A stretch of DNA of 60,332 nucleotides, the filler included, from Asterionella formosa (Eukaryota), in the NCBI GenBank assembly GCA_002256025.1. It is 9 parts of 9 records of this genome, joined end to end, with 100 filler letters (N's around TTAATTAATTAA, not from the genome) between each part and the next. Parts side by side here need not be neighbours in the genome. Positions count along the whole stretch, not along the records: positions 47,024 to 53,629 come from NKIB01012660.1; 8 more parts are not named here. One strand, 5' to 3'. Numbering within the stretch: the first letter of the stretch is position 1; every line of letters begins with the position of its first letter. Position numbers and translations under genes: made by a program. A model generated the notes under the pieces. That model saw only the letters and a list, made by a program, of their open reading frames with translations, was not told the DNA's origin and did not search any database. This document shows, one piece after another, positions 6,631 through 60,332 of the stretch.

Positions 6631-6730
6631 NNNNNNNNNNNNNNNNNNNNNNNNNNNNNNNNNNNNNNNNNNNNTTAATTAATTAANNNNNNNNNNNNNN
6701 NNNNNNNNNNNNNNNNNNNNNNNNNNNNNN
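6631..6730. other. Artificial contig linker (N44-TTAATTAATTAA-N44)
   Basis: The same 100-nt spacer with stops in all frames recurs at 13351, 20069, 26785, 33499, 40216, 46924 and 53630. Contigs are roughly size-sorted, 6630 down to 6603 bp. Confidence 0.98.
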
Positions 6731-13350: not shown

Positions 13351-14384
13351 NNNNNNNNNNNNNNNNNNNNNNNNNNNNNNNNNNNNNNNNNNNNTTAATT
13401 AATTAANNNNNNNNNNNNNNNNNNNNNNNNNNNNNNNNNNNNNNNNNNNNAATGTTGATGCCCTGCCTATGGGCGTTTAGAGCGAGCCCTCGTCATTTTG
13501 CTTCAATAATAACATCCTCGGCGAGATGCACGTTTTAGAACTTTAGTACTCCGGCCACGATCTGTCTTATATTTCACTATTTCTTGTCCATCTTTCTATG
13601 CGGCTTTTCTTATAGGACTGAGCAAAAAAGAATGGGAGAACAAGGAAAGGGAATTGGTGAGGAATCTCATAAAATGAATGTATAACATATTCTGGTTTTG
13701 TATGTAATGTGATTCTAATCCAGGAATGCATTACAATGGACTATGTAGGCTGTCTTGACTGTACAATTTTTCTCACGTGCAATAAATGGAGTGTGTATTA
13801 TCTAGAAGTGACTCCTAGCAATGCGGGGCTGTGTGTTCAAGGCTACATACAGTATCGATGGTAGACTTTTAGACGGATGTCAGCATACTGAAGCGTACAA
13901 CCCAACTAGGTGCTGATTTCAATTATCTCAATCTGGTTACAAGCATGAAGGGCATGTCATATGATAGCTTGAATAGTTTTGTTTCAAATGTATATATGTG
14001 CATCTTTAATTAGCAGTTATCAGAAAGAAACCAGGCTAAATTTGTTTTTAGTCAATACTCAACTACTAATCAGTCCTGTTTCAGCAATCCCATTCCCATT
14101 TCTACAACTGGAAAACGGCTTGCAGAAACCGGTTCAGCAGTTGAGCAAATCCAGTACCGTTTTGGCAACTGGAGGAAATTCGGCATGATAAATCAGCTAA
14201 TTGCCAATGCATGGACAAAAGGGTCATTTTAAAATGTCAATAGACTCCTCTTGAAAATTTTCGGGTTCCAGTATCTATGTATACCTCTGCTATGTCGGCT
14301 CCTCCCTTAAAATAATAGAGTCGGAGTTAATATTTGCGAGGAATGTGGCAATAACTCCAATTTTGAAGGCCCTTGGCATGATTG

Positions 14385-16030
14385 CATCTGCACATAAAAA
14401 GTATCATGCAAATAGGATCAAGGGTATTGTATGCTAGCTAAGTGGTACAGGATTTTCATGTATATGATAATTTTTGGCTTAAAACTATGATCAAGGTATC
14501 CTGTACTAACTATGATGATTTATTAATATTTTACCAAACATGAAGTATAATGATAATAAAAACGTTATCATCACACAATGTATATCAACTGATTAACAAC
14601 ATTTCTCGTCATCAATATCATAAACCTTCTCATATTATTTTCACTTCTCGTGATCGCCAAATGTAAATTATTTCTACAACGCATCCTAAAATCTGCTAAA
14701 CTCTATGCTATCATGTGCATTGTTTCATTGTTTATCTATCCTAAACATGATCATAATTCTAATCACGAGCTTTGTTCAAAATAGATTGAAATAGATCGTA
14801 ATTTAACTATCAAATTTAGCAGTGCTATCTATGATTTTACAGGCCAGCAAACCAATGTTTCTCTCTCCAATTGGCTCAATGTATATTCTTCCTGTCTCGC
14901 CCTTTTCTTCCTAGTACATTCTGAATCTTGTACCATGCAGTGCTTAAGGTATATCGACTCTCTCCCTGTTGTAAGTGACACTCTGAACTCGCCGACTATT
15001 TCTTTGTTTGATTGTTTTTATTGTTCTATGCAGTTACAGTGGTAACAATGAGAAGGAATGACTTGTTAGCTAAACATGTTACACTGACACAACATCACGC
15101 CCTTCCATCGTATCCTCTTGCTTGCTTCACTTACCACAGCCAAATCAAAGCAAGTGATGTATAAGGCTGTAATAGTAAATTGTCAGTAAATTCTTGAATA
15201 AGTAAGCAAGTTTCAGGTATCCAATGCTGTCGAATAGAACTTACCGATTCATTTTCGTTAGCTTAACTTTGAGAGAAGGTAAACGTGGCGTATCCGCCAG
15301 TTATGTTCCATCAGGAGTGAATAGGTCCAACGACAAGAGCACTTACCAATTTTGTTTTGTTTTACATTGGTGCTCCCCAACAAGCGAAATGAGCTATTGA
15401 ATCAACTGAGAAGAAAGGAAACGTGCATTTAGTTCACAATTTGTTGTTGTCCACTCCCAACGATTGTCATCTATGTACCACATTGATGGCTTCATTACCT
15501 TAAACATACTTCATCCATAGAAGGCGCAATGTATCGAAGCCACAGAGTTTTTCGTTATTGCGTAAACTTTCCTTGTCATATGCTTCTACGATATTTCCTC
15601 TCAAGAAGCAGGCATTGTTTGTTAACATGACAGAACAATTTCAAATATATTTGCCATGTATATAGCTATAAAATTTGTAAATATATGAAGTGTCGAACAT
15701 TTAAACAATTCAAAGGCACTTTCAATATGGCACATCTGCTATTACCAATGATCATATTTGCATATAGATAATTCGAAAATATGCAATGCACCATATGTCC
15801 ATTTTTTTCCACAATTTCGTGTACCGGTGCTGTTTCTGAAATTTGTTTGCATTAATATCTTCTACGTCTGTTGGAACTAACTATTTAGACCATTCAATTG
15901 GTGTAAGTCACAACCCATTTGTATCATTATTTATATGCAAGGATTTTGGTAGCTGATTATTTAAGCCCCTTACTTGGCGGGAGCTCTTCATGTGTGCATC
16001 ATATGATCATAACATTCTATCATATATGCA
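14385..16030. repeat. Dispersed repeat R1, copy 2
   Basis: Homologous to ~6990-8630. Confidence 0.92.
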
Positions 16031-20068: not shown

Positions 20069-20336
20069 NNNNNNNNNNNNNNNNNNNNNNNNNNNNNNNN
20101 NNNNNNNNNNNNTTAATTAATTAANNNNNNNNNNNNNNNNNNNNNNNNNNNNNNNNNNNNNNNNNNNNAGCCTGTGATGCAGGTGCACAAATGAGTCCAG
20201 CCTCCTCTTCAAGCCCTTGATTCCAAGACGATGAATCATATCCTTAAATCAGCAGCAGGAGTTGATGATGCGAACATTCGTGTGTGAAGTTGTGTGCACA
20301 TTCAGACAATCACAATATGTATTTTGACATGATTGA

Positions 20337-23300: not shown

Positions 23301-25934
23301 GAGGTCATGATTTGTTACACCTACCTACAAATTCATTGATCACTAGATGAACAATTACTCCTCTACCACTTACCCCAGCAATCATGAATCAAGTACATGC
23401 TCTTGCTGTGCAGGAGAATATGCCAGACGATCTCAAGATATCTAATCGAACGGAACAACTATTTTATGATAGTGCTTGGATTGCAGGAGTGGATTATGAT
23501 AATGAAGCATTTGAAGATGCACAAGATGAAGATTATGAAGATCAAGATGCTAGTGACAACGAAAGCAATGATGAAATTCTCGGAGAAGAAGACTATGATG
23601 AAATGACTCCGGATGAAATATATGAAGCAGAACAGCTCGAATTAAACGACAATACTCAAGAGGATGACCCTGAACCTGACGAGGGCAACAATGAGAATAA
23701 TATTGAAATGAATGCAGATGATATCCAAGATGAGGATGAAGAACCAGCAAATGAAACTGAAAATGAAGAGGCAATGTTAGAAGTCAATCCAAGTACTGAG
23801 GATGACACAGACCCAAATGTTAGAACTACAAGGTCTGGAAGAGTCTCAAGACCACCATCAAAACTAACTATGGTCCAAAATCATTTGCATACCCAAGCAC
23901 ACTGTCGAGAAGAATACACGACTGATAATGCGAAAGTGATCGCAATGACAATGTGTTATATGAATGAGATGTGTATCGATAAAGAAGCATTTCACTTTGT
24001 TCAGTCATACAGCTTAAGAAAAGGCCTCAAGAAATTTGGCCAGAAAGGAAGAGATGCTGCGTATAAAGAAATGAAACAACTACATGATAGAGTTGTATTT
24101 GAACAGATTAGGATTGAAGACCTAACAGAGATCGAAAAGCGACGCGCAATGGAAAGTCAAATTGTTTTGGTTGAAAAGAGAGACAAGAGTATTAAAGGCA
24201 GAGCTTGTGCCAATGGCAGTTCGCAACCACGTGAATGAATGGAAAGAGATGAAGCAGCTAGTCCTATTACCATGACGGGATCTGTTATGATAACAGCAAA
24301 AATTGATGCGAAGCAAATCGCGATGTTATGACAGCAGATATACCCAATGCATTTGTGCAATTGGTTATCGACGAGAAAGAAAAAGGGGAACGAATCATTA
24401 TGAGGATTGAGTGTTCACTTGTCAATATGTTGACAGAACTCAGCCCCAAGACTCATGAAAAATATGTTGTTTATGAAGGAATCAACAACAATGTCCTATA
24501 CATTAGGATGATCAAGGCATTATATGGCATGTTACAGTCATCATTGTTTTATTACAGGAAGGATATTGAGTCAATTGGTTTCAAGGTCAATCCATATGAT
24601 CCATGCGTTGCAAATCGCATTGTTAATGGCAAACAGCACACAGTTACTTGGCACGTAGACGATTTTAAATTAAGTCACTTGGACAGCAAAGTGAATGATC
24701 AATTTTTGGAATGGCTCAAAAAGAAATACGCTTCTGACAAAATTGGTGAAAAGCAAGGTCATGTGTGGAAAGAAGAATGATTATTTGGCGATGACACTAG
24801 ATTACTCTCTTCCAGGAGTGTTGAGGGTGGATATGACTAAATTTGTGAAATCAATGATTAATGATTTTCCAGAGAATCTTGAAAGTGTTGGAAAATTCCC
24901 ATGGACAGATAAATTGTTCACAGTGCGTTGATACGAAGTTAATGAAGCTTGAATATGAAAAAGCAAAAATATTTCATACTTTTGTTATGAAAGGAATGTT
25001 CCTATGTAAGCAAGGAGGACAGGACATTCAACTAGGAATTGCATTTCTGACAACCCAAACTACTGAACCAAATGAAGTTGATTGGGCAAAATTAGTCAAG
25101 ATCATGAATTTCTTGAAAGCAACTCAGAATGAGGTTGCATCAATGAGTGCTGATGAAACTCAGAGCATTAAATGGTATGTTGATGTGACGTTTGCTGTAC
25201 ACAAAGATTTAAAAGTCTCTCAGGAGCTACGTTGTCACTTGGAAATGGAATTAATTGTTCTATGTCTATGTAACAGAAAGTGAACATTAGATGTTCGGCT
25301 GAAGCAGAATTGGTTGGTGTCGATGACATTGTATCAAAAGTGTTGTGGACGAAATTATTTATTGAAGCACAAGGACACAAGGTGACTACAAATGTCATTT
25401 ACCATGTCAACACTAGCGCAATGAAGCTAGAAGAAAATGGAAAAGCAAGTTCAGGAAAACGCACGCGACATTTCAACATCAAGTATTTTTTTACATTACT
25501 GATCTTATTGAAAGAAAGGAAGTAAAAATAAAGTACTATACAATGGATGCAATGTTAGCAGACTACATGACGAAACCACTGGTTGGAACGAAATTTATTC
25601 ATTTTCATCAGCAAATTATGAATTCAAAGTGAGCATCCGTGTCCAGCAGGAGTGTGTTGGAGAAATTATTTTAGGAAAGAAAAATCCCAGTATGAATTGC
25701 CTACTTCATATTGAATCGAATTAATCAAAAAAGAATTTGGTACCAGAGAAAACTCAGAATTCGAAAACAATCTGCATCACCAGTAAAACCCATAATTCTA
25801 CAAAAACTCTTAGTAACCACGATTACAATCGATTACTGCAACATCGTTGTTCATATCTCAAGCGTATTTGGTCCCTGACATGTCCTTACAGGATACAAGA
25901 AAGCAATAGAGGGCTTCAGGATGCAATTTCAACA
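20337..25934 (+). mobile_element. Full-length but decayed Ty1/copia LTR retrotransposon (CoDi-like)
   Basis: LTRs at 20337-20613 and 25655-25934 (TG start, 3' LTR ends CA), 5-bp TSD ATTGA on both sides, purine-rich PPT before 25655. Gag CCHC knuckle (CYCCGRAGHKSPSC), protease LLDNQS, integrase (MDG...CDNEF...EAERNN), RT (ADIPNAF, KALYG, WHVDD) and RNase H in copia order. Confidence 0.96.
20747..25632 (+). pseudogene. copia gag-pol polyprotein, disrupted
   Basis: Many in-frame stops and frameshifts split it into the ORFs at 20942, 21398, 21911, 22994, 23384, 24328, 24695, 24861 and 25280. Confidence 0.92.
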
Positions 25935-26784: not shown

Positions 26785-26884
26785 NNNNNNNNNNNNNNNN
26801 NNNNNNNNNNNNNNNNNNNNNNNNNNNNTTAATTAATTAANNNNNNNNNNNNNNNNNNNNNNNNNNNNNNNNNNNNNNNNNNNN

Positions 26885-27827
26885 AAGCCACGGCGGTTCA
26901 ATAGTGCAGTTGAATTTGCTGCGATTCGCCTTGTGTACAATCAGCTTCGTGCTGGTGATTGCGCTTGTTCAGTCATGTCGCTTGCTGCCAAGCTGCGGCG
27001 CTTGTCTGGACAAGATGTTAGCTTGACTGCCATGTAGCAGTGTGTAGCTCGTTGGTGCGCTTCGCAAAACATTGTATATTGTTGTATCACCCACACAGCA
27101 AAAAAAAAGATGTACTGAGTGTCATGCAAGAGTGGTATCTCTAGTATATTAACATGCAGTTTGATTCTTGAAGTGTCACATCATTTTCCTAGTATCGTAA
27201 ATATAGATGAAACAAACATTTATTTTGATATGGCGGGCGGGCTTACCCTAGCTGATGGAGGTGCCAACAATCAGCTTACGCACAAATGGCAGCAGCATTC
27301 GTTGCACAGTGCTGTTGGGTTTTCAATGTCTAAAGAGAAGCTTGTGCTCCTCTTGTTTTTTGAGAAATTAACAATTAAAAGTTTGATTATCCCCCACAGA
27401 TTGCTTATTGTTGTCAGACAAAAGCATGGGTTCAGAAAGTCGGTTTTTTCATTGTAGACTTGCAACATTCGGAAGCCATGGAAAATCAGCCAGTCATGGC
27501 ACCCAGCCATCCTACATTCGGATGGATGCGTTTCAGATGCATGTGATGGCAACAAGCCTCAATGAAATTAAGGATTGTGGAACTAATGTGGACTTCATTT
27601 GTGGAGGATGCACCTCCAAACTACAGGTGTTGGAAATCGGAGTAAATAAACCCTTCAAGGGCTATGTTAGGGATGCTCATGAGAACTGGATAGTCGCAAA
27701 TCCTCATGGCACAAAGGTGAAGCGTCGAGATGTTGCTCAGTGGGTTTGGACAGCTTGGGAGAGGTTTTCACAATCAACAATTTTGAACACTTGGAATTCA
27801 GTTGATTACATCGTAAGTAACGACTGA
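26885..27827 (+). pseudogene. pogo-like (DDE_1) transposase remnant
   Basis: IVNIDETNIYFDM, MDAFQMH and GGCTSKLQVLEIGVNKPFKGYVR are pogo/CENP-B-type DDD motifs; frameshifted. Confidence 0.85.
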
Positions 27828-28057: not shown

Positions 28058-29580
28058 TGCTGAAGGCAATACACGCCTGAGGTGGTCTCTTGCCTGCGAG
28101 TATGCATGTGTTCAAGGCTGGGTGGCGCAAGTAGGTTGACCGTACGAGTGGCTCCCCTGGCGCTGCGATAAGGTCACCCTACAAGTGCCATCCCAGCCAA
28201 GTACACATGTATAAAAGAAGGCAAGTAGCCGCCAAGAAGGGTATTGTTGAGGCAATTCCCGCTCTAGCTATCATTGCGTCATTCACTTACCTACTGCCCA
28301 CAAATAAAGCATAAATGTCAATATTAGTCTACTATTGCCCATCATACAAAGCACATTTCGTTTATTTCCTACTATCTTCACCTCAAAAATTGCCAAAGGT
28401 CCGATATTGCCCATTTTGGGATTGCCGAAATCGGCATGGGGTCTACTTAAGGAAACCATTTTATATACTATACATGCTCAATTTCGTCCTCACAATTATA
28501 ATTCTCACTCTATCCTACCTGCCGTTGCTCAATTTGGGCTTGCAACAGGAACTTTCGACTTTCTTGTTATGCGCCCATCATCTGCTGCGTGTTACGCTTG
28601 TTAGAGCGGACTGGTTAGTACAACAGTCAAACACTGAATGTGATTGTAGATACGATTTTCGAGTTTCCTATTTGATTGCTTCCATGGTCTGTTTTGATTG
28701 CTTCTATCGTTCCGCTCTGTCGTTTTGATTCAATTGTAACTATCCACACAAGGGCATATATATGTATCAATGACTACTCTTTGAAGATGTGGTATCGTGC
28801 CGTTGTTGATCTTATTTCTTGATTTGTATAGTTGTTGACCATGATGTAAATGTTGCTGCCAAGCAATGTTTTTCTTGTACCAATGCGCTTTGCTACCTCT
28901 ACTATGAGTTTGTATCACAAGCTACATAAATACTCAGCTAGAGGGAGTCGATAGTGCTGGAGCAGCCTGGCGATCACGCTTGCTTAGAATGGAATGATCA
29001 GGGTTGCTTGTTTGGTGGGAGGAATGCCTGTGGCGGAAAGACTACTACTGGTGTCAGGCTACTACAGCGATGTGAATGGTTGCAGCAACGAGATCATCTA
29101 TGCTACATAACGATGCAGGTATAAATGGGGTTCAGCTTTTTTCTTCTTATTTCGGTCTTCGATTGTGTGGTGATGGGAAGTCAATGTTACCTGTGTAAGT
29201 ACTACAATGTCACAATGCATACTATGTTTCCATTGAAACTCCTATTTCTTACTTCATTTCTAACCCAAAAACCAATTTTTTCTATTTCTTCATTTGATGC
29301 TACTTATTAAATCGCATTTCATACTTTGGTTGTTTCAAACATCATGTTCAACAATTTTCATTGATGATGCATGTTACAATCATTCTTGTGTGTTTTACGC
29401 TTGTTGTACCATCTCTATGCATATTACCATTATTCTGGTTGTCATGCTAAAATCGGCAATTTTATTGCCGGAAAAATTCGATGTGCCCCATATTGCCATT
29501 AAATAAAAATTACTGAAGAAATTACTTAGTACTTAAAAGTACCCGAATAGCAAGACAATAGCTGGAGCGGGAATTGCTGA
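28058..29580 (+). mobile_element. Non-coding hairpin element (family H), complete copy A, 1523 bp
   Basis: Direct repeat (T)TGCTGA at 28057-28063 and 29574-29580. 197-nt hairpin at 28058-28254. Inverted repeat ATTCCCGCTC(T/C)AGCTAT at 28255 and, reverse-complemented, ending at 29574. Homologous to the copies at 39582, 52960 and 60021. Confidence 0.85.
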
Positions 29581-33248: not shown

Positions 33249-33599
33249 TAAGCAGCCAGTTCATAGTGGTCTAAGGGTCGTTCTTATCATTTTCGATTTG
33301 GTATCATTTTTTTTGAAAAAGTATCATGTAATGGCTACTCGATTTAAACCGAAAAAATCCATTCTCCACATAAATAAAAATGAAATTGTATCACCAAAAA
33401 GTATCACGAAAATTCAACGGTTACGGGCTGGCTACAAACATGTGCTTTTCTTTCCTGACTACCGGTACATAATGATGCCAAACCAGTCCTCAAACCATNN
33501 NNNNNNNNNNNNNNNNNNNNNNNNNNNNNNNNNNNNNNNNNNTTAATTAATTAANNNNNNNNNNNNNNNNNNNNNNNNNNNNNNNNNNNNNNNNNNNNA

Positions 33600-38459: not shown

Positions 38460-39587
38460 TTTTTGGTATTGCCGAAATTGGCAAAGGATTTACTTAAGGA
38501 AACCATTCTATATACACTGTAGATTTAATTATCATGTATCTAGTATTCACCAATTTGTTGTCATATAGCTACATCGATTTTTTTGTTTTCTAAATATGTG
38601 GGCGGAAATGCAGCTTTGACACAGGAGCCAATCATTGACGATCATGCCCAATCTGAAGCAAGATGGGTTCATTGATTACGCCAATAACCAGCGATTCGTC
38701 TTCAAACAGATGTGGTTGTTGAATTGCTTGTCGTCTGGTGGATTCATGTCATCGCATCATACCTACTACTTTATTGTGGTGGCACCCAAAATTGCTGTTT
38801 CTAATTCAATTGATCTCCAAAAGTCTCATCATTCATTTTCAGATTATGGTTACTGGCAATTCGGATGAATGCTCTGCTTCGATAATATCATTTATTGGAC
38901 TATTGGGGAAAAATTCATGGGTTGCTCTGGTAAGGAGTCAATTTCGAGCCATATTTGTCACTTCGTTTTTTCAGAAGAATTGGTCAGTTATTATTCAAAA
39001 ATTATTCATTTAGTATGGTTTCTACGTGAAAAGCAGATATGATGTCAATGCTTTACTAGTGTGCTTTTTAGCTGCTCTAAAATATATATTTGCTCTGTTT
39101 TCATTCACTGTTATTATAATTCTAACATCTGGCTGATTATTCTACAATTCACAACATGAACTAGATGCTGTTGAATCTCTCAAACATCAGCCATGATTTC
39201 TAACCCAAAACAATTCTATATAATTCTCACATGAGGCTACTTTTTACATAGCATATCATACTTTGGTTGCTCCAAACATCATGTTCAATTTTTATTGATG
39301 TTATATGTTGCTCTCATTCTCGTATGTTATGATGCTCATTCTACCACGCAAATATGATGTATTCCCTGTATGTCATATATGCTAACTACCCTTGCTGTCA
39401 TGCTAAAATCTGCAATTTTAAGAACGCCGAAAAAATTGATGTGCCCCATATTGTCCCTAAGAAATCGAAATTCCAAACAAATTACCGGTACTCACCGGAG
39501 GTATGAAAAGCCAAATATTACATACCCAAGTACCGGTACCACTCCAAGAGCAAGACGGTATGTGGCTACTACGGGAACAATTGCTGA
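38460..39587 (+). mobile_element. Family H element, older 5'-degraded copy, head-to-tail with copy B
   Basis: 38460-38550 matches the family left-internal sequence (ATTGCCGAAAT..TACTTAAGGAAACCATT). 39200-39460 matches 29260-29500. Ends gcaagac...cgggaacaatTGCTGA. Confidence 0.75.
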
Positions 39588-40215
39588 AGGCAAGTAGCCG
39601 CCGAGAAGGGTATTGTTGAGGCAATTCCCGCTCTAGCTATCGTCGCGTCATTCGCTTACCTACTGCCCACAAATTTACCATAAATGTCAATTTTAGCCTA
39701 CTATTGCCCATCATATAAAATATATTTTGTAGATTTCCTATGTTCACCTCGAAAATTGCCAAAGGTCCGATATTGCCCATCATTAAAATATATTCTTTAT
39801 ATTTCATATGTTCGCATGTTGGCAAGACAACAGACACCAATTGCCCCTCGGTTTTCCAGCCCAGGGATTGCCGAAATCGGCAAGGGGTCTACTTAAGGAA
39901 ACCATTTTATATACTATACAGATTCTAATAATTTATATCTAGAATTCACCTCGTTTTTGTTCGTCTCCTGAAAAGTGGACTCCGGCAATTCACCTTTCAC
40001 CATGCCAATCGTCGTCCATCATGACCGGTTTGAAGCGAAATCAGTTCCGCGATCCGCAATGACGCCAGTAGCGATTCTTTGCCTAACGGATGCGGTTGAT
40101 TGTTGGATTGCTTGTCTTCTCGAGGTATTCATGTAGTCGCATCGTCCATATTTCGTCGGACGCACGATGATATCGATACATCTGATGTTGGAGGCAAGTT
40201 TTTGCTCCGGTCATG
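39582..40215 (+). mobile_element. Family H element copy B; hairpin core deleted, truncated by the contig end
   Basis: TGCTGAAGGCAA is joined directly to GTAGCCGCCGAG (155-nt deletion between two AGGCAA repeats). The remainder is near-identical to 53121-53629. Confidence 0.88.
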
Positions 40216-40315
40216 NNNNNNNNNNNNNNNNNNNNNNNNNNNNNNNNNNNNNNNNNNNNTTAATTAATTAANNNNNNNNNNNNNNNNNNNNNNNNNNNNN
40301 NNNNNNNNNNNNNNN

Positions 40316-41103
40316 GCTGTTTCCTTACTCATGACTCTCCTTTCGTCATTGTTAGTGCCATGAAGAAGTTTAGAAATATCATCGACATTTAGAGCCGAGA
40401 GGGAATGTAGTCTCCCAATTGGAGATTCTTGGCGAGTCTCTATCTCGCAACTAGTAATCTTCTCTTCACAGCAGGGATTCATGATTGATTCTGAGTATTT
40501 ATGCCTTTCCTTCATGCCTTGAATGTCGTCGTTGCTTTCAAAATTAGTATTCTCTTTCTTATAATCCTCGCCGAGCAAGTCCAAGAGAGTAGTCGTGAAT
40601 TCGTGGCAGTCTTGTTGACGATAACCGACAAAAAGATGAGACCGAATGTCGAGAAACGTCTTGAACGCTTCCGGACGAACTGTTGCCTGTGATTGGAGCT
40701 GCTCCATCAGAGTCAGGTATTCTTGCCTTAACCCGAGCTTTTCTTCTTTTAGTTCTTCTAGTGCCATTTCGCGCAAATATGCATTAAACTTGTCTAGACT
40801 GGCCAACATTTGTAGACCTGAGTTCATATAGCAAGTGTTTCCCAGATTCCTCAGACCACCATAGCACAGAGAAACAGCGATACCCTCGCGAGTCAGTGTC
40901 GCGTCGTGTTCAACATCCTCCATTTCGACATCATTATCATCAGATAAGGACGGGACTGAAACTGACAAGTCGTCGATTGACGGCGAGACCAGAGCGGCAT
41001 CAGCATGCCCTAAATTTGAAATTGCATTTACAAAGTCGTCATCGTCATCGCAATAGCAATTTAATTCCATCATGTTCAGAGGAGAAAGGATAGCAGTAGA
41101 CAT
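40316..41103 (-). CDS. Ubiquitin-specific protease (peptidase C19), 3' partial
   Basis: Cys box GGLRNLGNTCYMNSGLQML and QQDCHEF motif; open to the contig end. Confidence 0.92.
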
Positions 41104-46027: not shown

Positions 46028-46811
46028 TACCTGCTACTCGGAGTATCAGGTACCGGTACCACTTAATAACTGTAAGCCACCGCTATGGCTTTCTGCAACA
46101 ATTGTTGCCTTTGGAAAAATTATATCCTCATGGCTTGATACACTGAATCAAAACTGATTACCTGGTACTTAATGGTATAGCAGAGAGCATCGTCTAGCAT
46201 ACACTTGCACATGCATCAAGTTTTAACATAAATATTTTGAGTCTGAAGATGGAGTATTACAGTTTTAAGTGGTACCTGGTACATACTATATAGTAGGAGT
46301 ACCAGGTTACCTCTTCGAGAAAATGAGGCGACCGTATACTATCTTAGTATCAGGTACCGTTAGTACCCCTTGCATTGTATGTACCAGTGCACCAGTGTAC
46401 CAGTATGCCGGGACCAGGGACCAGGGACTAGTACCTGATACCTACCACGTAGCATACTAGCCATACAGGAACTGGTGTTCCTGGTCCCAGGTGCAGCGAA
46501 TTCTTCAGAAGGGGATACCAGGTACCTGGTACCTGGTACCCGGTACTACCAGGTACCAGGATAACCCCTGTAGCAAGTAGCTGGAGGCACCCTATTAATG
46601 TTTTTCTGGTGGTACCAGGTACCAGGCACCAGCGGGCAGTAGAGCACTGATGTGTTTTAGCACCAGGTACCAGGTGCCGGTATGTATTTATTACCTGCAT
46701 TGAATTGTAAAGTGCATGCACGCATGACTGCTACATGTACAATATAAAGAGAATTACCGAAAATGCATCTTACGATCACATCTGCAAACAAAACAACGTG
46801 CGTTATCCATC

Positions 46812-46923: not shown

Positions 46924-47023
46924 NNNNNNNNNNNNNNNNNNNNNNNNNNNNNNNNNNNNNNNNNNNNTTAATTAATTAANNNNNNNNNNNNNNNNNNNNN
47001 NNNNNNNNNNNNNNNNNNNNNNN

Positions 47024-47700
47024 TTATGTATTGCGTAAACTTTCTTTTCTTGTCATGTGCTTTACTACAATGTATCTTTTCATGAAGCAGCAGGCATTGT
47101 TTGTTAACATGACAGAACGATTTCAAAAATATATATGCCATGAATATAGTTATAAAATTTGTAAATATATATATATATGTATTTTAAAATTTGTAAATAT
47201 ATATATATATATATTAAGTGTCATACATTTATAAAATTCAAAGGCGCTCTCGATATGGAACATCTGATATGGTTGAGATGATCATACTTGCATATACATA
47301 ATTCGAAAATACTCAATGCACTATATGTCCATTGTTTTCCACGACTACGTGTACCGGAACTGCTTCTGAAATTCGTTTGCATCGATATTTTCTACGTCCG
47401 TTGAAACAAATTATTTAGACCATTCAATTGGTGTAAGTCATAACCGCAAGGGTTTTGGTAGCAAATTGTTAAAGCCCCTTTTTGGGCGGGAGCTCTTCAT
47501 GTGTACCGATACCACATCATATGACAATAACAATATATCATATATATACACAGAGTACCAGTAGCAGGTAGTAAGTGATATACTGGGGGTAGTCGGAGTA
47601 GTAAACTAGCAACAGAACACATGTGTTCAGGACTGTTGCTACTGCAGTGGGACAGTAAATCATCATAGTTTTAGGATCATATGATTGTAAAACTAAAAAC
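47024..47700. repeat. Dispersed repeat R1, copy 3 (3' part)
   Basis: Homologous to ~8160-8830. Confidence 0.9.
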
Positions 47701-47710
47701 CAATAGTCGG

Positions 47711-49388
47711 AGGTCTGACATGAAACTTGATGTGCCGTGTTGACAGCACAGACAGTGTCTGCATTAAACACTTGATATGGAGTGTTGACTCTGTGGTATT
47801 CGCTTCTCTCATATGAAGAATGATCAGGATGGATCAAAAAACTACAAGCCCAGACATGTGTATACAAATCCTGAGGATTTTGCTGTGTGTCCAATCACTG
47901 TTTTGTTTGAGTACATGTGTGTCAACCCAGATATTATCCAAAACCTTGATGGGCCACTCTTTCCAGGTGCAAATCAAGAGGATCGCTTTAGAAAGATTCT
48001 CAAGCAACTTTTCAAGAAGCATGAGGGGAATTTAGATGAGTATGATATTGATGAACTAGGCACCCACAGCATACGCAAAGGTGCAACAACTTATGCTTCC
48101 AGTAGATCAACAGCAAGCCCATCAAGTGTTGCAATTAACAACCATGGGGGTTGGACTCTAGGCAGTGTCAGAGATGTCTATATGCTGTATGATAAAGAAA
48201 GTGACCATTATGTTGGTCGCATTTTAGCTGGGTTACCATTACTCTCAGCTCGCTTTGCTGTTTCTGAGCCAAATTTTTGGGTGAAATGTCCATGTAATGA
48301 TAGTGCCATACAAGACCAGTTAATTCTTGATGGAAAGGTTCTTGCTGGCTTGCGGGCCTTATTTGGTGATGTGCTTTGCCGACAAGTAGTTTTCATTCCA
48401 TTTCTACGAGTGGGTCTTGCTTGTGTGTTGCATCACATGGAGAATCTACAAATACTGAGAAAGTATAAAACATCATTGATGCATTTAACAGGAGTGTCTA
48501 CATCAAATGAAATTGCAGCACTTTCAGATCATGTTTGTTGTTCGATATCCATTTGAAGAAAAGGATTTTTTCGCAATTAAATTGACTGGCATTCCTCCAC
48601 ATGTTGCCCACCTTGCTGCCATAGAGCAAATGAGAGGTGACTTTCTCCAACTTGGTCCATCATTGCTTAGTGATTTTGAGAAAATGCTCAATGATCGAAC
48701 TTATGCTGGTGTCATTTCAGAAAATCGAATGGAGGCCATCATGGAAAAAATTATTGGGCAAAAGCTCCATGGGTTGACTAAACGACTAGACCAAGCAGCA
48801 ACAAGGAATTATGCTGCATCAAACAACCCAACAACTCCAAACAACCAGAAATCATCCTCCCATCTGTTTTTGCATCCTCATGATGGATTGTTCTGGAGAG
48901 TTCCAGTTGGATGGCAGTTCCCGCTTTGTACTGTAGCTGTTGCTTACTGTTTATGGCATATGGGAGATGACAGGAATAAAATTGGTCCATTAAAGTTTTT
49001 AGACAATCATGATGTCAGTTTTGAGACTGTCACAAGGGTGAATGCTGATGGTGCCAATGGTGAGGAGCAAGTTGTTGTCTGGAAAGGATGCAAAAGGGGG
49101 ATCAAGTATTTAGATGAATTCAGGAAGATAATGAAAAGATTGGATGGCAGAGCAAAAAATCGAAGACTCCTGAAACCTCCAATTACAAGAGAAAATGTCC
49201 TTGTTGCTCTTGAGCAATGCAAGGACTGTCTTGGCATTTCACCTATGACTGCTCAAGGGAGGAAGAGACGTATTGCAAGTCTGAAGTGGAACACTGCTTT
49301 TAGACAAATGCCTACAGAGAGAAATGTTGTAAGAAGTTGTGGCACTAATGCTGGAAATTGTATTCCATGCATTGGTGATCCATGGTGA
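47711..49388 (+). pseudogene. Crypton (CryptonS-like) tyrosine recombinase, 5' truncated and frameshifted
   Basis: Catalytic set *NLMCR (probable WNLMCR), HMKNDQ, GTHSIRKGA, GGW and DVY, then DHYVGRILAGLP. The C-terminal ORF has RVPVGWQFP...LWHMGD...PL. Frameshifts near 47790 and 48540. Confidence 0.85.
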
Positions 49389-50835: not shown

Positions 50836-52003
50836 ATGACTACGATTGCCCCCGTGGTCCTTCCATTTCCTCCCGTGATTGCCGTATTTACGAGAGATGT
50901 TCTAAATAATAATGCAGCCATCGTTGACTTCAACATAATCTGGAAGGAAATGCTCAGGGCTTTGACTGATCGTGGTTTGGAAACGTTGAAGACAAAACCA
51001 AACAGTGTGCCTGACTTCCAGATACTAAAATGTTGGGCGACACGCACACATGCCAAACAAGAAGAAGTTGTTGCTACAGCCATGGTACAAAACATCAGAA
51101 ACAGAGGTGGGGATTTCTATCAATTTGATGTTGCAGCGAAATCATGGGGGATGCCTATTTCGAATGAGGCAGCAATTGCTTATTCCACGATTCCTCTCGC
51201 TGCTCAATATACGGCTGAACTTGAGGAAACGAATAAAGCGATTATCAATGAATGGGAGACTTACATAAAACCAGTCGGGATGTCGGCCTCGTGACCTTAA
51301 TCAGGTTTCATCAAACAACCGACTCACTACAATGGGCTTGTAATTTCTCCAAATTCCTCCTGATTCCCATTCTCGTCATTCAGTTCATTGTTCCAATTGT
51401 GGTGGCTATCAGTACTTGGAGAGATTATGGCTCAAGTTTTGATGGAAGACTTTTTCCAAAGAAACAAGGAGCTGCGGAAGAAGCTAGCCGTATAGACAAT
51501 GGATCGCTTGCTGGCGCCGTTGCTTGCATTTACTTCGTGAGCCTGCTTTTCTGGTTAATTCAGAAAGTTCATCAATCTGGACTCCACCTTACCGCTGGAA
51601 ACATTACTCAAACTGGTGGAATCATTATGTATACAAAATCTGTGACCGATTCATGCACTTTGTATATGAGCCTTTGGCGTACCTGGTCAATCTTTGGTAT
51701 GTTTTCCTCCAGCCAGACACTTATACCATTGTTTTTAGTGCGACAGCATTGCAATTCATATTGGATCTAGACGACTTGTTCAAAGCAATGTTCATCAACA
51801 TATTCCCACCAAATGTCGACAACTATATGGCTTTGAATAACGAGGAAAATTCAAGTGCACTACCCAAAAGGCAGGTGAAAAAAGGATTCCTTCCATATTT
51901 CCACTTTTGGGAACTTTTTTTCTTTTCCGTTAATCTTGTTTGTTGCGTTATTGCGGGTTTCGGAATATTTTACCTTCCCATATTCAAGCCATCAGTGATT
52001 TGA
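50836..52003 (+). pseudogene. Multi-pass membrane protein gene split by two -1 frameshifts (pseudogene or sequencing error)
   Basis: Three overlapping ORFs (50836, 51252, 51524) would join into one protein with several TM segments and ALQFILDLDD. No obvious intron at the shifts. Confidence 0.55.
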
Positions 52004-52442
52004 ACATGACTTGTTGTGTGAGCATGTGAATTTCTCTGTACGTCTACCATAAATATTAACAATATTGATTAATATAAATATATAATTTCACATTCAGAGG
52101 GTTCACTGCTGTTTTCGAAAGGATCCCACACCAACCCGCAGTACCTGTTGTAGAAAATCAAATAAATAAAATGTAATGAAAATGAATTCATTCTCAATCC
52201 ACAAACCACCACCAGCATGAAATAGCTTGGTGCTTTGATCAACTTTTGACGTGTTCATTTGCGATGCAGTAGCTTATTCAGAGTCACACGTTTAGTCTTC
52301 CTTATTTCCATCACATGTTGGACAAGTCCAATAATCCTGTGATGCTTGAATCCCTCTGACAAAATTTGCTTCCATTTCTTTACCATGCCTCTGGGACTTA
52401 GAAAACTCTCTCTTGGGATTTTGACAGAGATAAAGAAAATTT

Positions 52443-52541
52443 TTCCTTCCTTCCTTCCTTCCTTCCTTCCTTCCTTCCTTCCTTCCTTCCTTCCTTCCTG
52501 CACAGCTTGGACAACTTGGACAACTTGGACAACTTGGACAA
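52443..52541. repeat. (CCTT)n microsatellite followed by (CTTGGACAA)x4
   Basis: Read directly. Confidence 0.95.
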
Positions 52542-52959
52542 CGCCATCATTGCTCGACTCTGGAAAAAATCGGCTTCTATTTCATTACCACATAACTGGT
52601 TATTGGACATGAAATCAGGGATTGAGAACATTGTTCGTTGGGGTTTTGAACGAGATCAACAGAATGGAAGAGAGATGCATTAGCGGCTGCAGCAAAACCC
52701 GAAAACGATGAAGGAATTCGCCAAGCATTTCATGTGACGAACCTTGCGAAAGCTACGCTCTCTAAATCACTTGTACTTGCCAGGTCCCGTTGGCACGGGA
52801 TAGATATATTGCATTCTTTCCCCAGGATCTAGTTTGTAATATCGCATTCTTGCGTTGATAAACAGAACAAAGCAATTGTGAACTTTCGGAACGATGCATA
52901 CAATGAAATAATTATGATGCGTTTATAACACGTTTGTCGATGTGCTCAATCGATGCGAA

Positions 52960-53629
52960 TGCTGAAGGCAATACACGCCCGAGGTGGTCTCTTGCCTGCG
53001 AGTATACATGTGTTCGAGGCTGGGTGGCGCGAGTAGGTTGACTGCACGAGTGGCGCCCCCGGCGCTGCGAGAAGGTCACCCTACGAGTGCCATCCCAGTC
53101 GAGTACACATGTATACGAGAAGGCAAGTAGCCGCCGAGAAGGGAATTGTTGAGGCAATTCCCGCTCTAGCTATCGTCGCGTCATTCGCTTACCTACTGCC
53201 CACAAATTTAGCATAAATGTCAATTTTAGCCTACTATTGCCCATCATATAAAATATATTTTGAATATTTCCTATCTTCACCTCGAAAATTGCCAAAGGTC
53301 CGATATTGCCCATCATTAAAATATATTTTGTATATTTCATATGTTCGCATTTTGGCAAGACAACAGACACCAATTGCCCCTCGGTTTTCCAGTCCTGGGA
53401 TTGCCGAAATCGGCAAGGGGTCTACTTAAGGAAACCATTTTATATACTATACAGATTCTAATAATTTATATCTAGAATTCACCTCGTTTTTGTTCGTCTC
53501 CTGAAAAGTCGACTCCGGCAATTCACCTTTCACCATGCCAATCGTCGTCCATCATGACCGGTTTGAAGCGAAATCAGTTCCGCGATGACGCCAGTAGCGA
53601 TTCTTTGCCTAACGGATGCGGTTGATTGT
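52960..53629 (+). mobile_element. Family H element copy C; best-preserved hairpin, truncated by the contig end
   Basis: TGCTGA start, hairpin at 52960-53156 with ten intact CGAG motifs, then ATTCCCGCTCTAGCTAT and the left-end body. Confidence 0.9.
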
Positions 53630-54229
53630 NNNNNNNNNNNNNNNNNNNNNNNNNNNNNNNNNNNNNNNNNNNNTTAATTAATTAANNNNNNNNNNNNNNN
53701 NNNNNNNNNNNNNNNNNNNNNNNNNNNNNGTATTAACTTGTGTAGACTCTACGACTTGGATCGTGATGGAAATTAATATAAGCCAACCACATCACTTATA
53801 TGATTATTCGACCAGAATCATGACATGCACGAAATATTTCTGCATCATGAGGCAGCAGACGAAATGATTCTGTGAACACTTCCGGCAAGCCGACAACATC
53901 AAGGCCAGAACTGCCTGAGCCTTTAGCATTCAGCTTGATAATCGCTCCACAACAAGCATGCAAGTTGCAGCTTCGACTTTTGAAATAGATCTCAGGACAA
54001 GGATATCGCCATCGCAAATGTCATTGGCATCGCTCGTGTTGTTGTTGATTGTTGTTTCATGATGGTGACCGGTAAGAATACAATTATAGTAAATTCATTA
54101 ATAAATAGCTAGAATACAATAATATGCTGTTATTTTTTCTGTAGACATAAAATATTTGGGGGTGTTGTGCCAGATGTACGAAGGGGGGTACAGGTATCTG
54201 GGGGGATACGAGACACCAGGTTTTACGGT

Positions 54230-60020: not shown

Positions 60021-60332
60021 TGCTGAAGGCAAGACGCGGCCGAGGTGCGTGGTCTCATCCTATCGAGTAAATACGTACATCTGTTCGAGGCTGGGTGGCG
60101 CGAGTAGGTTGACCGTACGAGTCGCGCCAAAGCCCTGCGGGAAGGTCACCCTACGAGTGCCAACCCAGCCAAGTACACATGTAAATGAGAAGGCAAGTCC
60201 CGCTCCAGCTATCGTCTTGCCATTCGGGTACTTCTAAGTAATTTTTAGGCTCTAAGTAATTTCTTAAGTAATTTTTATTTAAGGGCAATATGGGGCACAT
60301 CGAATTTTTCGGCAATAAAATTGCCGATTTTA
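60021..60332 (+). mobile_element. Family H element copy D: hairpin joined to the opposite (right) end of the body
   Basis: TGCTGAAGGCAA start and a diverged CGAG hairpin to ~60196. 60197-60332 is the reverse-complement homolog of ~29447-29574. Confidence 0.85.

Follow-up and report, generated by a model that had tools for sequence, protein, structure and literature searches.

The window, that is, the whole 60,332-nt stretch of Asterionella formosa DNA that was analysed, consists of separate contigs of ~6.6 kb, with N44-TTAATTAATTAA-N44 linkers every ~6.7 kb. At the end of the contig covering 47024-53629 sits a copy of a dispersed element that begins with a long hairpin. The features of this copy, of its relatives in the window, and of a recombinase gene in the same contig are as follows.

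47715..49331, + strand: 5'-truncated, frame-broken Crypton-like tyrosine-recombinase gene, 3.6 kb left of the hairpin
52960..52965, + strand: TGCTGA, the 6-nt left bounding repeat, at which the similarity of all copies starts; the same 6-mer lies at 29575-29580
52966..52979, + strand: unpaired left terminus AGGCAATACACGCC, with one GGCAAT (= ATTGCC)
52980..53138, + strand: hairpin core, five CGAG/CGAG sites with 7-12-bp helices between them and a CCC loop at 53058-53060
53140..53165, + strand: small palindrome GGGAATTG-TTGAGG-CAATTCCC, to which 53139-53156 are assigned, outside the stem
53154..53177, + strand: left copy of the sub-terminal inverted repeat, GCAATTCCCGCTCTAGCTATCGTC (5 matches in the window, 0.00 expected)
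53178..53629, + strand: "A arm" with a cluster of ATTGCC/GGCAAT, running into the contig end (linker at 53630)
28058..29580, + strand: the only complete copy, 1523 nt, with a decayed hairpin (28078-28236), an A arm with an internal deletion and, in its right part, an inverted B arm (29155-29577) and a terminal TGCTGA (29575-29580)
39582..40215, + strand: hairpin-less copy, missing 147 nt between two GAAGGCAA direct repeats
60021..60332, + strand: diverged copy, outer stem disrupted, with a 31-nt deletion that fuses the hairpin to a B-type arm

The hairpin and its CGAG register

An initial annotation, made from the sequence alone, placed a 197-nt hairpin at 52960..53156. The observation holds, the stem proper measuring 159 nt (52980-53138) and being preceded by an unpaired terminus at 52960-52979. 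Its + strand carries ten CGAG motifs, five starting at 52980, 52999, 53015, 53030, and 53047 and five at 53068, 53084, 53100, 53116, and 53135, all in one orientation and spaced 15-21 nt apart. Motif search and simple arithmetic confirmed the proposed register, since the starts of facing motifs add to 106115 in four pairs and to 106114 in the fifth. Both arms indeed carry CGAG instead of setting CTCG opposite CGAG (10 CGAG and 0 CTCG; CTCG is absent from the + strand of 52940-53180). Aligning the left arm to the reverse-complemented right arm recovered the complementary segments described between the sites, together with the five CGAG/CGAG sites and 4 single-base bulges. The bases that precede the ten motifs (C, G, T, G, A, G, A, T, A, C) and those that follow them (G, T, G, T, T, A, T, T, A, A) vary, leaving CGAG alone as the constant part, and these conserved bases are just the four required for a pyrimidine-GA-purine tandem.

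The pattern CGAG-N11-17-CGAG-N11-17-CGAG matched 9 times in the window against 0.00 expected from 100 shuffles. All 9 matches lie on the + strand within hairpin copies, 8 of them here and 1 at 60086, and no further cluster of at least four CGAG or CTCG was present anywhere in the window. Folded as DNA, the + strand of the 197 nt reached -47.6 kcal/mol (z -5.2), which 0/200 shuffles equalled, and the - strand -42.2 kcal/mol (z -4.5); the hairpin is the most stable among 1852 folds scanned in 186-nt windows. Tandem Repeats Finder found no tandem repeat at the locus, a tRNA scan found no tRNA-like part there, and Rfam returned 0 matches at E up to 1 for both strands of 52700-53629. Another structured region, at 46340-46700, is a GGTACC-type palindromic simple repeat and was set aside as unrelated to the element.

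Strand asymmetry

Folding both strands, a check suggested with the initial annotation, gave the more stable structure on the + strand under DNA and RNA parameters alike. In the parallel comparison as DNA, the + strand reached -48.4 kcal/mol and the - strand -43.7 kcal/mol; as RNA, the values were -105.9 (z -10.1) and -82.4 kcal/mol (z -5.2). The + strand was favoured in 4/4 copies folded. In size, the asymmetry ranks 4th among the 1852 windows, the other high-ranking windows being due to base composition.

Mismatches were counted in the stem of metagenome contig L001, a consensus-like copy. On its + strand, the non-Watson-Crick pairs comprise 10 G·A/A·G (five tandems), 1 extra G·A, 1 A·A, and 5 G·T, and the disfavoured pairs are 0 A·C, 1 T·T, and 1 T·C. 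Purine·purine pairs thus number 12 against 2 pyrimidine·pyrimidine, and G·T 5 against 0 A·C. With each tandem taken as a single event, the score is 12 for the + strand and 2 for the - strand (two-sided sign test, p ~0.013). Together with the folding energies, this bias supports the earlier proposal of a fold selected on one strand, in that the fold looks selected, and the strand-biased design points to reading as a single strand. The stability attributed to tandem G·A pairs agrees with the literature, in which GA-AG stacking in DNA is well documented (PMC8163305). The parallel drawn with Streptomyces and parvovirus-like hairpins stands in part: sheared G:A pairs do occur in Streptomyces telomere hairpins, but as described in PMC4513846 they close loops and are not periodic motifs of a stem.

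The same motifs might be read in duplex form, as head-to-tail sites for the arm-binding domain of a recombinase or for an accessory protein, with the palindrome as a relic of inverted duplication. Iterons and accessory sequences near nick or crossover sites are known from several systems. They are common beside such sites, for example in pMV158 (PMC10288648), and here all ten motifs point in the same direction, their spacing of 15-21 nt corresponding to ~1.5 helical turns; ATTGCC, the second repeated motif, resembles a candidate protein site as well. However, four conserved base pairs with unconserved flanks offer little for duplex recognition, and duplex sites leave the exact facing of the motifs, the complementarity of the spacers, and the wobbles, all G·T and none A·C on the same strand, without explanation. 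We regard duplex sites as very unlikely.

A single strand could also be RNA. The fold might act in a + strand transcript that starts at the left end or reads through it, serving as a decoy, a stabilising leader, or the precursor of small RNAs, and the periodic internal loops would prevent its treatment as perfect double-stranded RNA. The strand gap is largest under RNA parameters, and RNA commonly contains G·U pairs and tandem G·A. Part of the stretch is present in contigs of 6 RNA-library runs; a 335-nt contig of one of them, X15, covers the right-end/left-end junction described below and the entire hairpin, and the element/flank depth ratio in another, X16, exceeds that of the DNA runs. Yet the contigs from RNA runs carry no strand, start, or end information, and carry-over of high-copy DNA would look alike; nor does any Rfam family match. 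The motif is always pyrimidine-GA-purine, the context that sheared pairs need in DNA. This context was reportedly defined by Cheng, Chou and Reid in 1992, and RNA is said to tolerate others. The position at a transposon terminus, the arm conversion in contig L002, and the symmetric deletions (see below) point to DNA events, and we consider a role as RNA unlikely.

Ends, arms, and junctions of the element

The similarity of three window copies and L001 starts exactly at TGCTGAAGGCAA, and the left TGCTGA is found in all 4 window copies as well as L001. Run X1 has 85 contigs that end at 52959-52962; their flanks are unlike (consensus agreement 0.36-0.50), and depth goes up ~50-fold. Contigs of X1, X4, and X16 also show unlike flanks left of 52958-52962. 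The sharp similarity boundary, the unlike flanks, and the jump in depth bear out the initial view that a dispersed element ends here. This element is a non-autonomous DNA transposon, present in many copies and lacking coding capacity, and the hairpin forms its left end.

The full element is ~2.1 kb long (1.5 kb in the complete window copy) and non-coding, the longest ORF in metagenome contig L002 being 83 aa. The A arm of the present copy shares 96.5% identity with 39586-40103 and 97% with L001 and L002. ATTGCC occurs 8 times in the 670 nt of this copy as compared to 1.14 per kb window-wide, and its clusters are confined to near the two ends of the element. The sub-terminal inverted repeat is 24 nt long; its left copy lies ~190 nt inside the left terminus, and its inverted copy is found at the right terminus (29558-29577). 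In the one complete copy, TGCTGA stands at 28058-28063 and 29575-29580, and the outer flanks share nothing. The left ends are preceded by A, T, T, and T, and the right end is followed by C.

L001 contains a right-end/left-end junction with a single TGCTGA, as does one contig of X15; X1 and X16 each have one joint consistent with such a junction. Tandem insertion would give the same picture as a circular intermediate. The joined ends hold 11-bp inverted repeats (9/11 matching) centred on TGAAG, 3 nt off TGCTGA, and being off-centre they fit a recombinase core site imperfectly. In our own comparison, the small palindrome at 53140-53165 resembles the joined right and left ends of the L001 junction, GGGAATTGCTGAAGGCAAT.

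Several element types were considered and rejected. A solo LTR does not fit, as there is no internal retroelement and the ends are unlike; a DDE transposon with target duplication does not fit either, the repeat being identical in all copies with nothing duplicated outside. A pogo-like DDE_1 ORF at 27387-27824 was dismissed as mobiliser for want of a TA duplication and matching ends. The hairpin was also not accepted as an independent MITE with an 8-bp duplication, since the right GAAGGCAA repeat belongs to the stem; with this repeat partly inside the stem, the missing core of the 39582 copy fits slippage deletion better.

The layout of the ends also brings to mind rolling-circle transposons of the Rep/HUH type (Helitron2/Helentron or Replitron), for which the hairpin would be a recognition or termination structure on the transferred strand. 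As in Helitron2-type elements, a stem-loop lies outside one inverted repeat, here the left one, and such elements are reported to occur with joined ends and as tandem copies (PMC5148889). A 6-bp terminal direct repeat with a palindrome is known from Replitron-1, and HUH enzymes recognise strand-specific DNA hairpins (PMC10288648). Against this, 0/91 ORFs in the window (60 kb of genome) have a Rep, helicase, or Helitron-like domain, and the flanks show no T-T insertion site. The left repeat lies much farther from the terminus than the 20-50 bp described for Helitron2-type elements, whose described stem-loops are short (PMC5148889), and Replitrons are reported as not detected in diatoms (PMC10288648). 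Unlike read-through tandems, the abutting ends at 39196-39593 differ greatly in age. On balance, we judge a Rep/HUH origin improbable.

Decay and rearrangement of other copies

The homologs initially reported at 28058 (90.5% over 357 nt) and 60021 (81.6% over 179 nt) were both recovered, the latter ending where the window ends. The metagenome contigs contain at least 2 copies, L001 and L002; 0 further copies were found in viral contigs and 0 in the genome contigs searched.

Retention of CGAG in register across diverged copies, the check proposed for these homologs, failed: 2/10 sites are kept in the 28058 copy and 6/10 in the 60021 copy, and the left arm of the latter has unmatched 4- and 6-nt insertions by which the register is lost. 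Of the 14 substitutions in the 28058 hairpin, 10 are at CpG, and the loss of CGAG in old copies can be put down to CpG decay of dead copies. CpG decay accounts for this loss and gives no positive sign of selection. Compensatory changes numbered 0 among 5 copies, which are either near-identical or decayed. Across runs X1, X4, and X16, 1/40 CGAG positions (53136) varies at 10% of depth or more.

Several rearrangements involve the hairpin. In L002, a patch of the right arm has changed from CGAGA to CTCGC, the exact complement of the left arm. Among 15 listed joints in X1, 7 delete the hairpin centre with one end in each arm, including a 52998/53100 joint with 6-nt microhomology, and the 39582 copy has lost its hairpin between 8-nt direct repeats. 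The L002 patch, the symmetric deletions, and the 39582 loss indicate that the two arms interact as DNA. X1 depth is lower over the hairpin than over the A arm, and many copies have internal deletions. The 39582 copy is preceded by an older right-end-like arm (39196-39485), so that a young left end and a far older right end meet within 39196-39593 (93-96% and 75% identity, respectively). This age contrast fits insertion aimed at a resident half-site.

These data also bear on whether the hairpin has any role. It might be a passenger palindrome or a miniature derivative inserted in tandem, its pattern being a historical accident. A 186-nt module starts with TGCTGA-AGGCAAT (left-like) and stops with GGGTAT-TGTTGA (right-like), and may thus once have been a separate mini-element. 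The hairpin-less 39582 copy is young, and its 96.5% identity to the present copy suggests that hairpin loss may be tolerated; internal deletions are frequent among copies, and dead copies decay freely. However, to arrive at five identical two-base mismatches from a perfect inverted duplication would take ten specific transversions, and CGAG repeats promote deletion, as in the 52998/53100 microhomology, yet the family consensus retains them. We give little credence to a hairpin without a role.

A tyrosine-recombinase gene in the same contig

All 26 aligned relatives of the truncated recombinase keep R, K, H-x-x-R, W, and Y, and a C-terminal extension is conserved. The structure predicted for a full-length relative matched Cre, Tre, or XerH in all of the best 18 Foldseek matches listed (probability 1.00, best E 2e-3). 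By this predicted structure, a tyrosine-recombinase family of Cre fold is present in this genome. The model of the truncated 255-aa ORF in the window gave no fold match, and Pfam had no match to the ORF itself, even with the E limit relaxed to 10. Searching PDB sequences with the recombinase profile returned only two weak, irrelevant rows, and in viral contigs the profile gave 31 pattern matches, of which 0 were confirmed.

Flank comparison in this one contig revealed no link between the recombinase gene and the hairpin element. The interval 50878-52960, between the recombinase side and the hairpin, holds no ATTGCC cluster, and the flank left of 52960 has neither arm similarity nor terminal features shared with the element.

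Proposed model

We tentatively favour, with a probability of about 0.3, a model in which the hairpin is a cis-acting left-end module of a TGCTGA-bounded, non-autonomous transposon that moves through a joined-ends circle, folds on its + strand, and is served by a Crypton-type recombinase. The model builds on observations of the motif and its register, of strand asymmetry and element boundaries, of joined-end sequences, of the terminal repeat (one complete copy), and of a tyrosine-recombinase family in this genome. The element bounded by TGCTGA would move via a joined-ends (circular) form. On the + strand only, helices of 10-12 bp would be joined at the five identical CGAG/CGAG sites, where stacked G·A pairs, two per site, would keep the rod continuous. 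The - strand would bear destabilising C·T/T·C pairs at the same sites, so that duplex DNA should not extrude as a cruciform. The fold would then appear only when the + strand is single-stranded, in a replication or transposition intermediate. Lying 20 nt from the crossover or nick site, it could mark the end and the + strand for the mobilising enzyme or a host factor. Integron integrases act on folded attC sites. By analogy with an integron integrase on its folded attC site, a Crypton-type tyrosine recombinase would be the favoured enzyme, a Rep/HUH protein being the main alternative.

Folding as single-stranded DNA in vivo, a need for the fold in transposition, and the identity of the reading enzyme are steps that we infer. 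The hairpin may serve as an origin or a recombination site, as initially proposed; the telomere role put forward with these can be dropped, the hairpin being internal to chromosomal DNA and at one end only.

We know of no eukaryotic tyrosine-recombinase element that uses folded single strands. The proposed use of one counts against the model, as do the sub-terminal inverted repeats, the unlinked recombinase gene, and a terminal repeat seen in one copy. The 0 compensatory changes in 5 copies, the loss of CGAG or register in diverged copies, and the young hairpin-less copy weigh on the same side, along with the X1 depth dip over the hairpin, the off-centre repeats of the joined ends, and an asymmetry that is not unique in size.

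Novelty and implications

A limited literature search found no description of such a hairpin, and in one diatom-TE preprint the terms had 0 occurrences. This agrees with the initial remark that no diatom transposon end of this design is described, and the hairpin design is new as far as our searches reach. One-strand terminal hairpins typify transposons and replicons that are processed as single-stranded DNA. The described eukaryotic examples that we know of are short Helitron-type stem-loops, and we know of no biochemical demonstration of the Crypton or Replitron mechanism. The 159-nt design, interrupted five times by one stable purine-purine motif on a single strand, would allow folding of one strand with the duplex kept from extruding.

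A eukaryotic Crypton-like (tyrosine-recombinase) family with a left end recognised in its folded, single-stranded form, periodic tandem sheared G·A pairs giving the strand specificity, is a long shot. If true, it would be the first structure-specific single-strand recombination in eukaryotes, parallel to integron attC or CTX phage sites. The G·A device would couple excision or copying to replication and explain the high copy number of a "cut-out circle" element. If the recombinase link holds, a high-copy family with sharp ends, joined ends, and a distinctive structure would make a convenient model. The motif also lends itself to testing how proteins recognise tandem sheared G·A within long helices of DNA or RNA. 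Even as a passenger, the hairpin would belong to a new and clearly delimited repeat family, one at which short-read assemblies of this alga break.

Comparison with known systems

Foldback elements and palindromic MITEs have long inverted repeats with internal sub-repeats, are high-copy and non-coding, and carry sub-repeats that are complementary between the arms. The present element shares the long inverted repeat with sub-repeats, the high copy number, and the lack of coding capacity, but it has CGAG on both arms, a palindrome at one end, and no target duplication of its own. Its arms are thus not reverse complements with sub-repeats included, as those elements would require.

Integron attC, IS200/IS605 ends, CTX phage attP, and the single-strand origins of rolling-circle plasmids are one-strand imperfect palindromes. 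In these prokaryotic sites, mismatches or extrahelical bases set the strand choice, and their sizes of 60-200 nt overlap with that of the hairpin. They differ in being prokaryotic and in using bulged bases instead of periodic tandem G·A, and we claim no homology.

Streptomyces telomere hairpins contain sheared G:A pairs and resemble parvovirus ends (PMC4513846). The likeness lies in single-stranded DNA hairpins with sheared G:A that are read by replication proteins; in the description given there, the G:A pairs close loops at the ends of linear replicons, whereas here they are periodic, chromosomal, and at one end (PMC4513846). Chromosomal DNA lies to the left in 3 window copies and only one end has a hairpin, unlike a hairpin telomere.

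Helitron2-type elements (HLE2) have short inverted repeats with a stem-loop outside one of them, and in a "reverse" form, including the Phytophthora (oomycete) proto-Helentron, the stem-loop is at the 5' end (PMC11417382; PMC5148889). The topology of inverted repeats with a stem-loop outside one is matched here, and joined ends occur here too; tandem copies are known from HLE2. HLE2 are described with short stem-loops, repeats of 12-16 nt near the ends, and T/T insertion (PMC11417382; PMC5148889), whereas the present layout has a repeat of at least 24 nt, a left copy ~190 nt inside, and a stem-loop of 159 nt. For 28058-29580, no insertion site between T and T can be rebuilt.

Replitron-1 has the 6-bp repeat TAAAGG at both termini, an 11-bp palindrome at the right end, and target RG, and Replitrons are described from several stramenopile groups, including algae, but were not detected in diatoms (PMC10288648). 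The complete copy likewise carries 6-bp direct repeats at its two termini and a palindrome close to one of them, here a 159-nt hairpin at the left end as compared to 11 bp at the right. No Y1 Rep, a transposase for which Pfam may lack a model, was found among the 91 window ORFs.

Cryptons are found in oomycetes and one diatom; their 4-6-bp terminal direct repeats are taken as the recombination substrate, and a circular intermediate is proposed (PMC3212892). They are described without inverted repeats, and most CryptonS end in TATGG (PMC3212892). The present element differs in its TGCTGA, its sub-terminal inverted repeats, and its terminal hairpin, and it is non-autonomous and high-copy, with no link found to the recombinase gene. 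It resembles Cryptons in its short terminal direct repeats, of 6 bp in the one complete copy, with no target duplication beyond them, in its stramenopile host range (PMC3212892), and in the presence of a Cre-fold tyrosine recombinase in the window.

Geometry of the CGAG hairpin

Re-reading of 52960-53156 bore out the sequence description in the initial annotation. The ten + strand CGAG motifs are confirmed, with starts from 52980 to 53135 and no CTCG there, and the facing arrangement holds as well, the starts of paired motifs summing to 106115 in four pairs and to 106114 in one. A pattern of three CGAGs with gaps of 11-17 nt has nine matches in the window, all on the + strand (eight at the 52960 hairpin and one at the 60086 copy), compared with 0.00 expected from 100 shuffles; at least four CGAG or CTCG motifs spaced within 30 nt occur nowhere else in the window. 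The array does not count as a tandem repeat, since a tandem-repeat search finds none. It might be read as a set of iterons acting in the duplex, which we consider distinctly improbable; comparison of the ten units found no conservation beyond the four bases, and the strand forms a single long hairpin with a CCC loop at 53058-53060.

The claimed fold was supported when both strands were folded as DNA: the + strand reaches -47.6 kcal/mol (z -5.2), the - strand -42.2 (z -4.5). Among 1852 overlapping 186-nt windows scanned by RNA folding (mean -38.7, sd 10.8), the one starting at 52980 was the most stable, at -112.0. Stem anatomy was derived from L001, a consensus-like metagenome contig that has the majority letters of sequencing run X1 at 53043, 53045, and 53144, by aligning its left arm to its reverse-complemented right arm. 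Five CGAG/CGAG sites, each reading C-G, G·A, A·G, G-C, lie between helices of 7-12 bp; the other + strand imperfections are five G·T, one G·A, one A·A, one T·T, one T·C, and no A·C, along with four single-base bulges. In the 52960 copy, the loop-distal neighbor pair is never Watson-Crick at any of the five sites (C·A, G·A, T·T, G·T, A·A), while the loop-proximal neighbor is paired every time, and the CGAG motif is therefore polar. Cheng, Chou and Reid reportedly found in 1992 that tandem GA stacking requires a pyrimidine-GA-purine context. For DNA, stacking of tandem GA-AG is well established (PMC8163305). The design of the hairpin is real and far from chance.

Strand asymmetry

Where one strand has a G·T or purine·purine pair, the other has A·C or pyrimidine·pyrimidine, and asymmetry in a near-palindrome can arise only through mismatch identity. 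With tandems counted once, 12 mismatch events favor the + strand and 2 the - strand (P about 0.013 by a two-sided sign test). For L001, the + strand reaches -105.9 (z -10.1) with RNA parameters as compared to -82.4 (z -5.2) for the - strand, and -48.4 as compared to -43.7 with DNA parameters; the + strand was more stable in all four copies folded. The size of the asymmetry ranks fourth among the 1852 windows, the others being due to skewed composition. A role of the hairpin as RNA is conceivable and rather unlikely.

Boundaries and plan of the element

Similarity between copies begins exactly at TGCTGAAGGCAA, giving a sharp left boundary. That this is the end of a dispersed element, as first proposed, is upheld by contigs with dissimilar flanks that stop at 52958-52962 (X1, 85; X4, 7; X16, 19; all sequencing runs), and by summed depth, which across the boundary climbs in X1 from 2,000-51,000 to 0.4-3.5 million and in X4 from 6 to 13-595. 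The flank at 52523-52932, left of the hairpin, is multi-copy in X1 (two variant positions are covered by 11 and 21 contigs) and single-copy in X4, at depth 6; X1 and X4 probably contain different strains or species. The stretch was found in 20 of 24 listed runs from 14 studies, which were chiefly metagenomes from fresh water, rivers, or lakes, with one "algae metagenome" among them; the host is probably a diatom.

Order of parts in the complete copy, 28058-29580
1, TGCTGA
2, AGGCAAT, with 14 unpaired bases altogether
3, hairpin
4, small palindrome GGGTATTG-TTGAGG-CAATTCCC
5, inverted repeat GCAATTCCCGCTCYAGCTATCGTC
6, A arm (the part right of the hairpin)
7, inverted B arm (the right-end part), terminated by the same repeat GCAATTCCCGCTCYAGCTATCGTC
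8, TGCTGA

No duplication lies beyond the two TGCTGA of this copy. ATTGCC/GGCAAT occurs nine times in it, confined to about 365 nt at the left end and 125 nt at the right end, and eight times in 670 nt at 52960 vs 1.14 per kb window-wide. Comparison with L002, another metagenome contig, indicates that about 500 nt were lost from the complete copy in the window and that the unit at full length spans about 2.1 kb; its longest ORF has 83 aa, and the element is non-autonomous. An A-arm sub-module with the perfect palindrome TTGCCGAAATCGGCAA is present at 38464-38758, 39864-40143, 28417-28474, and 53396-53483; it stands alone at 38464, and the element is therefore a mosaic.

Linkers of 44 N, TTAATTAATTAA, and 44 N recur every ~6.7 kb, with a spacing that drops slowly from 6720 to 6706 nt.

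Linkers
6631-6730
13351-13450
20069-20168
26785-26884
33499-33598
40216-40315
46924-47023
53630-53729

We infer that the window consists of separate ~6.6-kb contigs, length-sorted and glued, so that parts on either side of a linker are neighbors only by construction; the ORF at 40264-41103, for instance, begins inside a linker. The copies at 52960 and 39582 both extend into contig ends, as is typical of assembly-breaking repeats.

Joined ends, arm interaction, and decay

In L001, the inverted B arm continues directly into the left end with one TGCTGA between them. The same arrangement is found in a 335-nt contig of X15, an RNA-library run, and is suggested by joints in X1 and X16 (the latter also an RNA-library run). 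It appears again at 39196-39593, where the right-end part is 73-75% like other B arms and the left-end part 93-96% like other A arms, presumably because a young copy was inserted beside an old right end. The joined-end sequence GCGGGAATTGC-TGAAG-GCAATACACGC is an 11-bp inverted repeat (9/11 matching) with a 5-nt center, and it is nearly duplicated by the small palindrome within the left end.

The right arm of L002 reads CTCGC vs CGAGA in all other copies, the exact complement of its left arm. Sequence is otherwise unchanged within 12 and 7 nt on either side. CTCGC is a templated patch rather than an assembly switch. Seven of the 15 listed X1 joints cut out a middle stretch of the hairpin, with one endpoint per arm, one of them at a 6-nt microhomology, CGAGTA, and the 39582 copy lacks 147 nt between two GAAGGCAA repeats. 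The patch, the joints, and this loss are signs of the arms meeting as DNA. Variants at 10% of depth or more in X1, X4, and X16 hit one of 40 CGAG positions (53136), under a 90% likeness threshold that favors young copies. The family keeps the motif despite the instability, and the hairpin is hardly likely to be a passenger.

Retention of CGAG, which had been expected in diverged copies, is partial: 2/10 are kept at 28058 and 6/10 at 60021, where register and stem are broken. In the 60021 copy, the left arm contains unmatched insertions of 4 and 6 nt and the central stem is broken; this copy folds at -62.9 vs -97.8 for L001. Ten of 14 substitutions in the 28058 hairpin fall at CpG, eight of them CpG transitions, although just 34 of 197 bases are CpG positions; this pattern at 28078-28236 fits cytosine methylation of the element. 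CpG observed/expected is 0.72 for the whole window, and G-to-A vs C-to-T changes at 28078-28236 stand at 6:2 on the + strand, a bias too small for interpretation. No compensatory change between arms was found among the copies compared. The covariation and in-register retention anticipated by the initial annotation thus had no positive outcome, yet they did not cleanly fail, because the copies are dead and not independent lineages.

Candidate enzymes and reading of the design

Genes and repeats
24307-24777, +, RVT_2 (copia-type reverse transcriptase), weak (E 0.0064, under the Pfam cut-off)
27119-27824, +, DDE_1 transposase, pogo/Tigger-like, C-terminal part (Pfam match 27387-27824, E 4.7e-7)
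47715-49331, +, tyrosine recombinase gene, 5'-truncated and frame-broken, with KNDQ, GTHSIRKGATTYA, and GGWTLGSVRDVYMLY in its ORFs
6990-8829, 14385-16027, 47029-47699, dispersed repeat family, 72-83% identity
46340-46700, GGTACC/CCAGGTACC-type palindromic simple repeat adjoining a contig end
50030-50185, 52-nt unit three times in tandem (98% and 83% identity to the first)

The DDE_1 gene is cut by the contig start and stops 234 nt short of the complete element's left end. The 46340-46700 repeat has a strong fold on either strand (-80 to -88 kcal/mol per 186 nt as RNA), and one copy of the 6990-8829-type repeat stands where the 5' part of the recombinase gene would be.

Of 3135 candidates, 43 are longer relatives of the recombinase ORFs at E up to 1e-3; two are named Fragilaria crotonensis, one Aphanomyces stellatus, and one is labeled integrase. 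The relatives in these two species and in many metagenome contigs measure 450-940 aa, and the recombinase has a long conserved C-terminal extension. All 26 of 26 aligned sequences share R, K, H-x-x-R, W, and Y without exception. No Pfam model detects the window gene; among 21 relatives scanned, three matched Phage_int_SAM_4, one the phrog_1 integrase (E 1.8e-6), and two phrog_216. For a modeled 585-aa relative (pLDDT 74), the best 18 listed structural matches are all Cre, Tre, or XerH, with Tn1549 integrase, Flp, and XerA lower; probability is 1.00 for the top matches and the best E is 2e-3, none listed having E up to 1e-3. The product of 47715-49331 is a truncated Crypton-like recombinase. 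The 3.6 kb between its gene and the hairpin contain no arm similarity and no ATTGCC cluster, and the only link to the element is that such enzymes exist in the genome.

The design is best explained by selection for the + strand fold at a mobile-element terminus. In the reading we favor, the + strand would fold as a single-strand DNA structure that is read beside a crossover or nick site. That a Crypton-type recombinase is the enzyme is tentative (probability roughly 0.3) and slightly likelier than a Rep/HUH enzyme, which comes next and is doubtful. Rep, helicase, or integrase models in Pfam match none of the 91 window ORFs scanned.

Comparison with known systems

The literature searched holds no description of such a hairpin. 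Cryptons (PMC3212892) lack inverted repeats; their 4-6-bp terminal direct repeats are the presumed recombination substrate, and a circular intermediate has been proposed. CryptonS, from oomycetes and one diatom, has 5-6-bp repeats, mostly TATGG. PMC11417382 and PMC5148889 describe Helitron2-type elements with 12-16-nt inverted repeats, a stem-loop outside one, and T-T insertion, as well as a reverse form with a 5'-end stem-loop. PMC10288648 describes Replitron-1 as carrying the same 6-bp direct repeat on either end plus an 11-bp palindrome, and reports no Replitrons found in diatoms. Our element shares some features with all three and departs from Cryptons and from Helitron2-type elements in at least one defining feature each.
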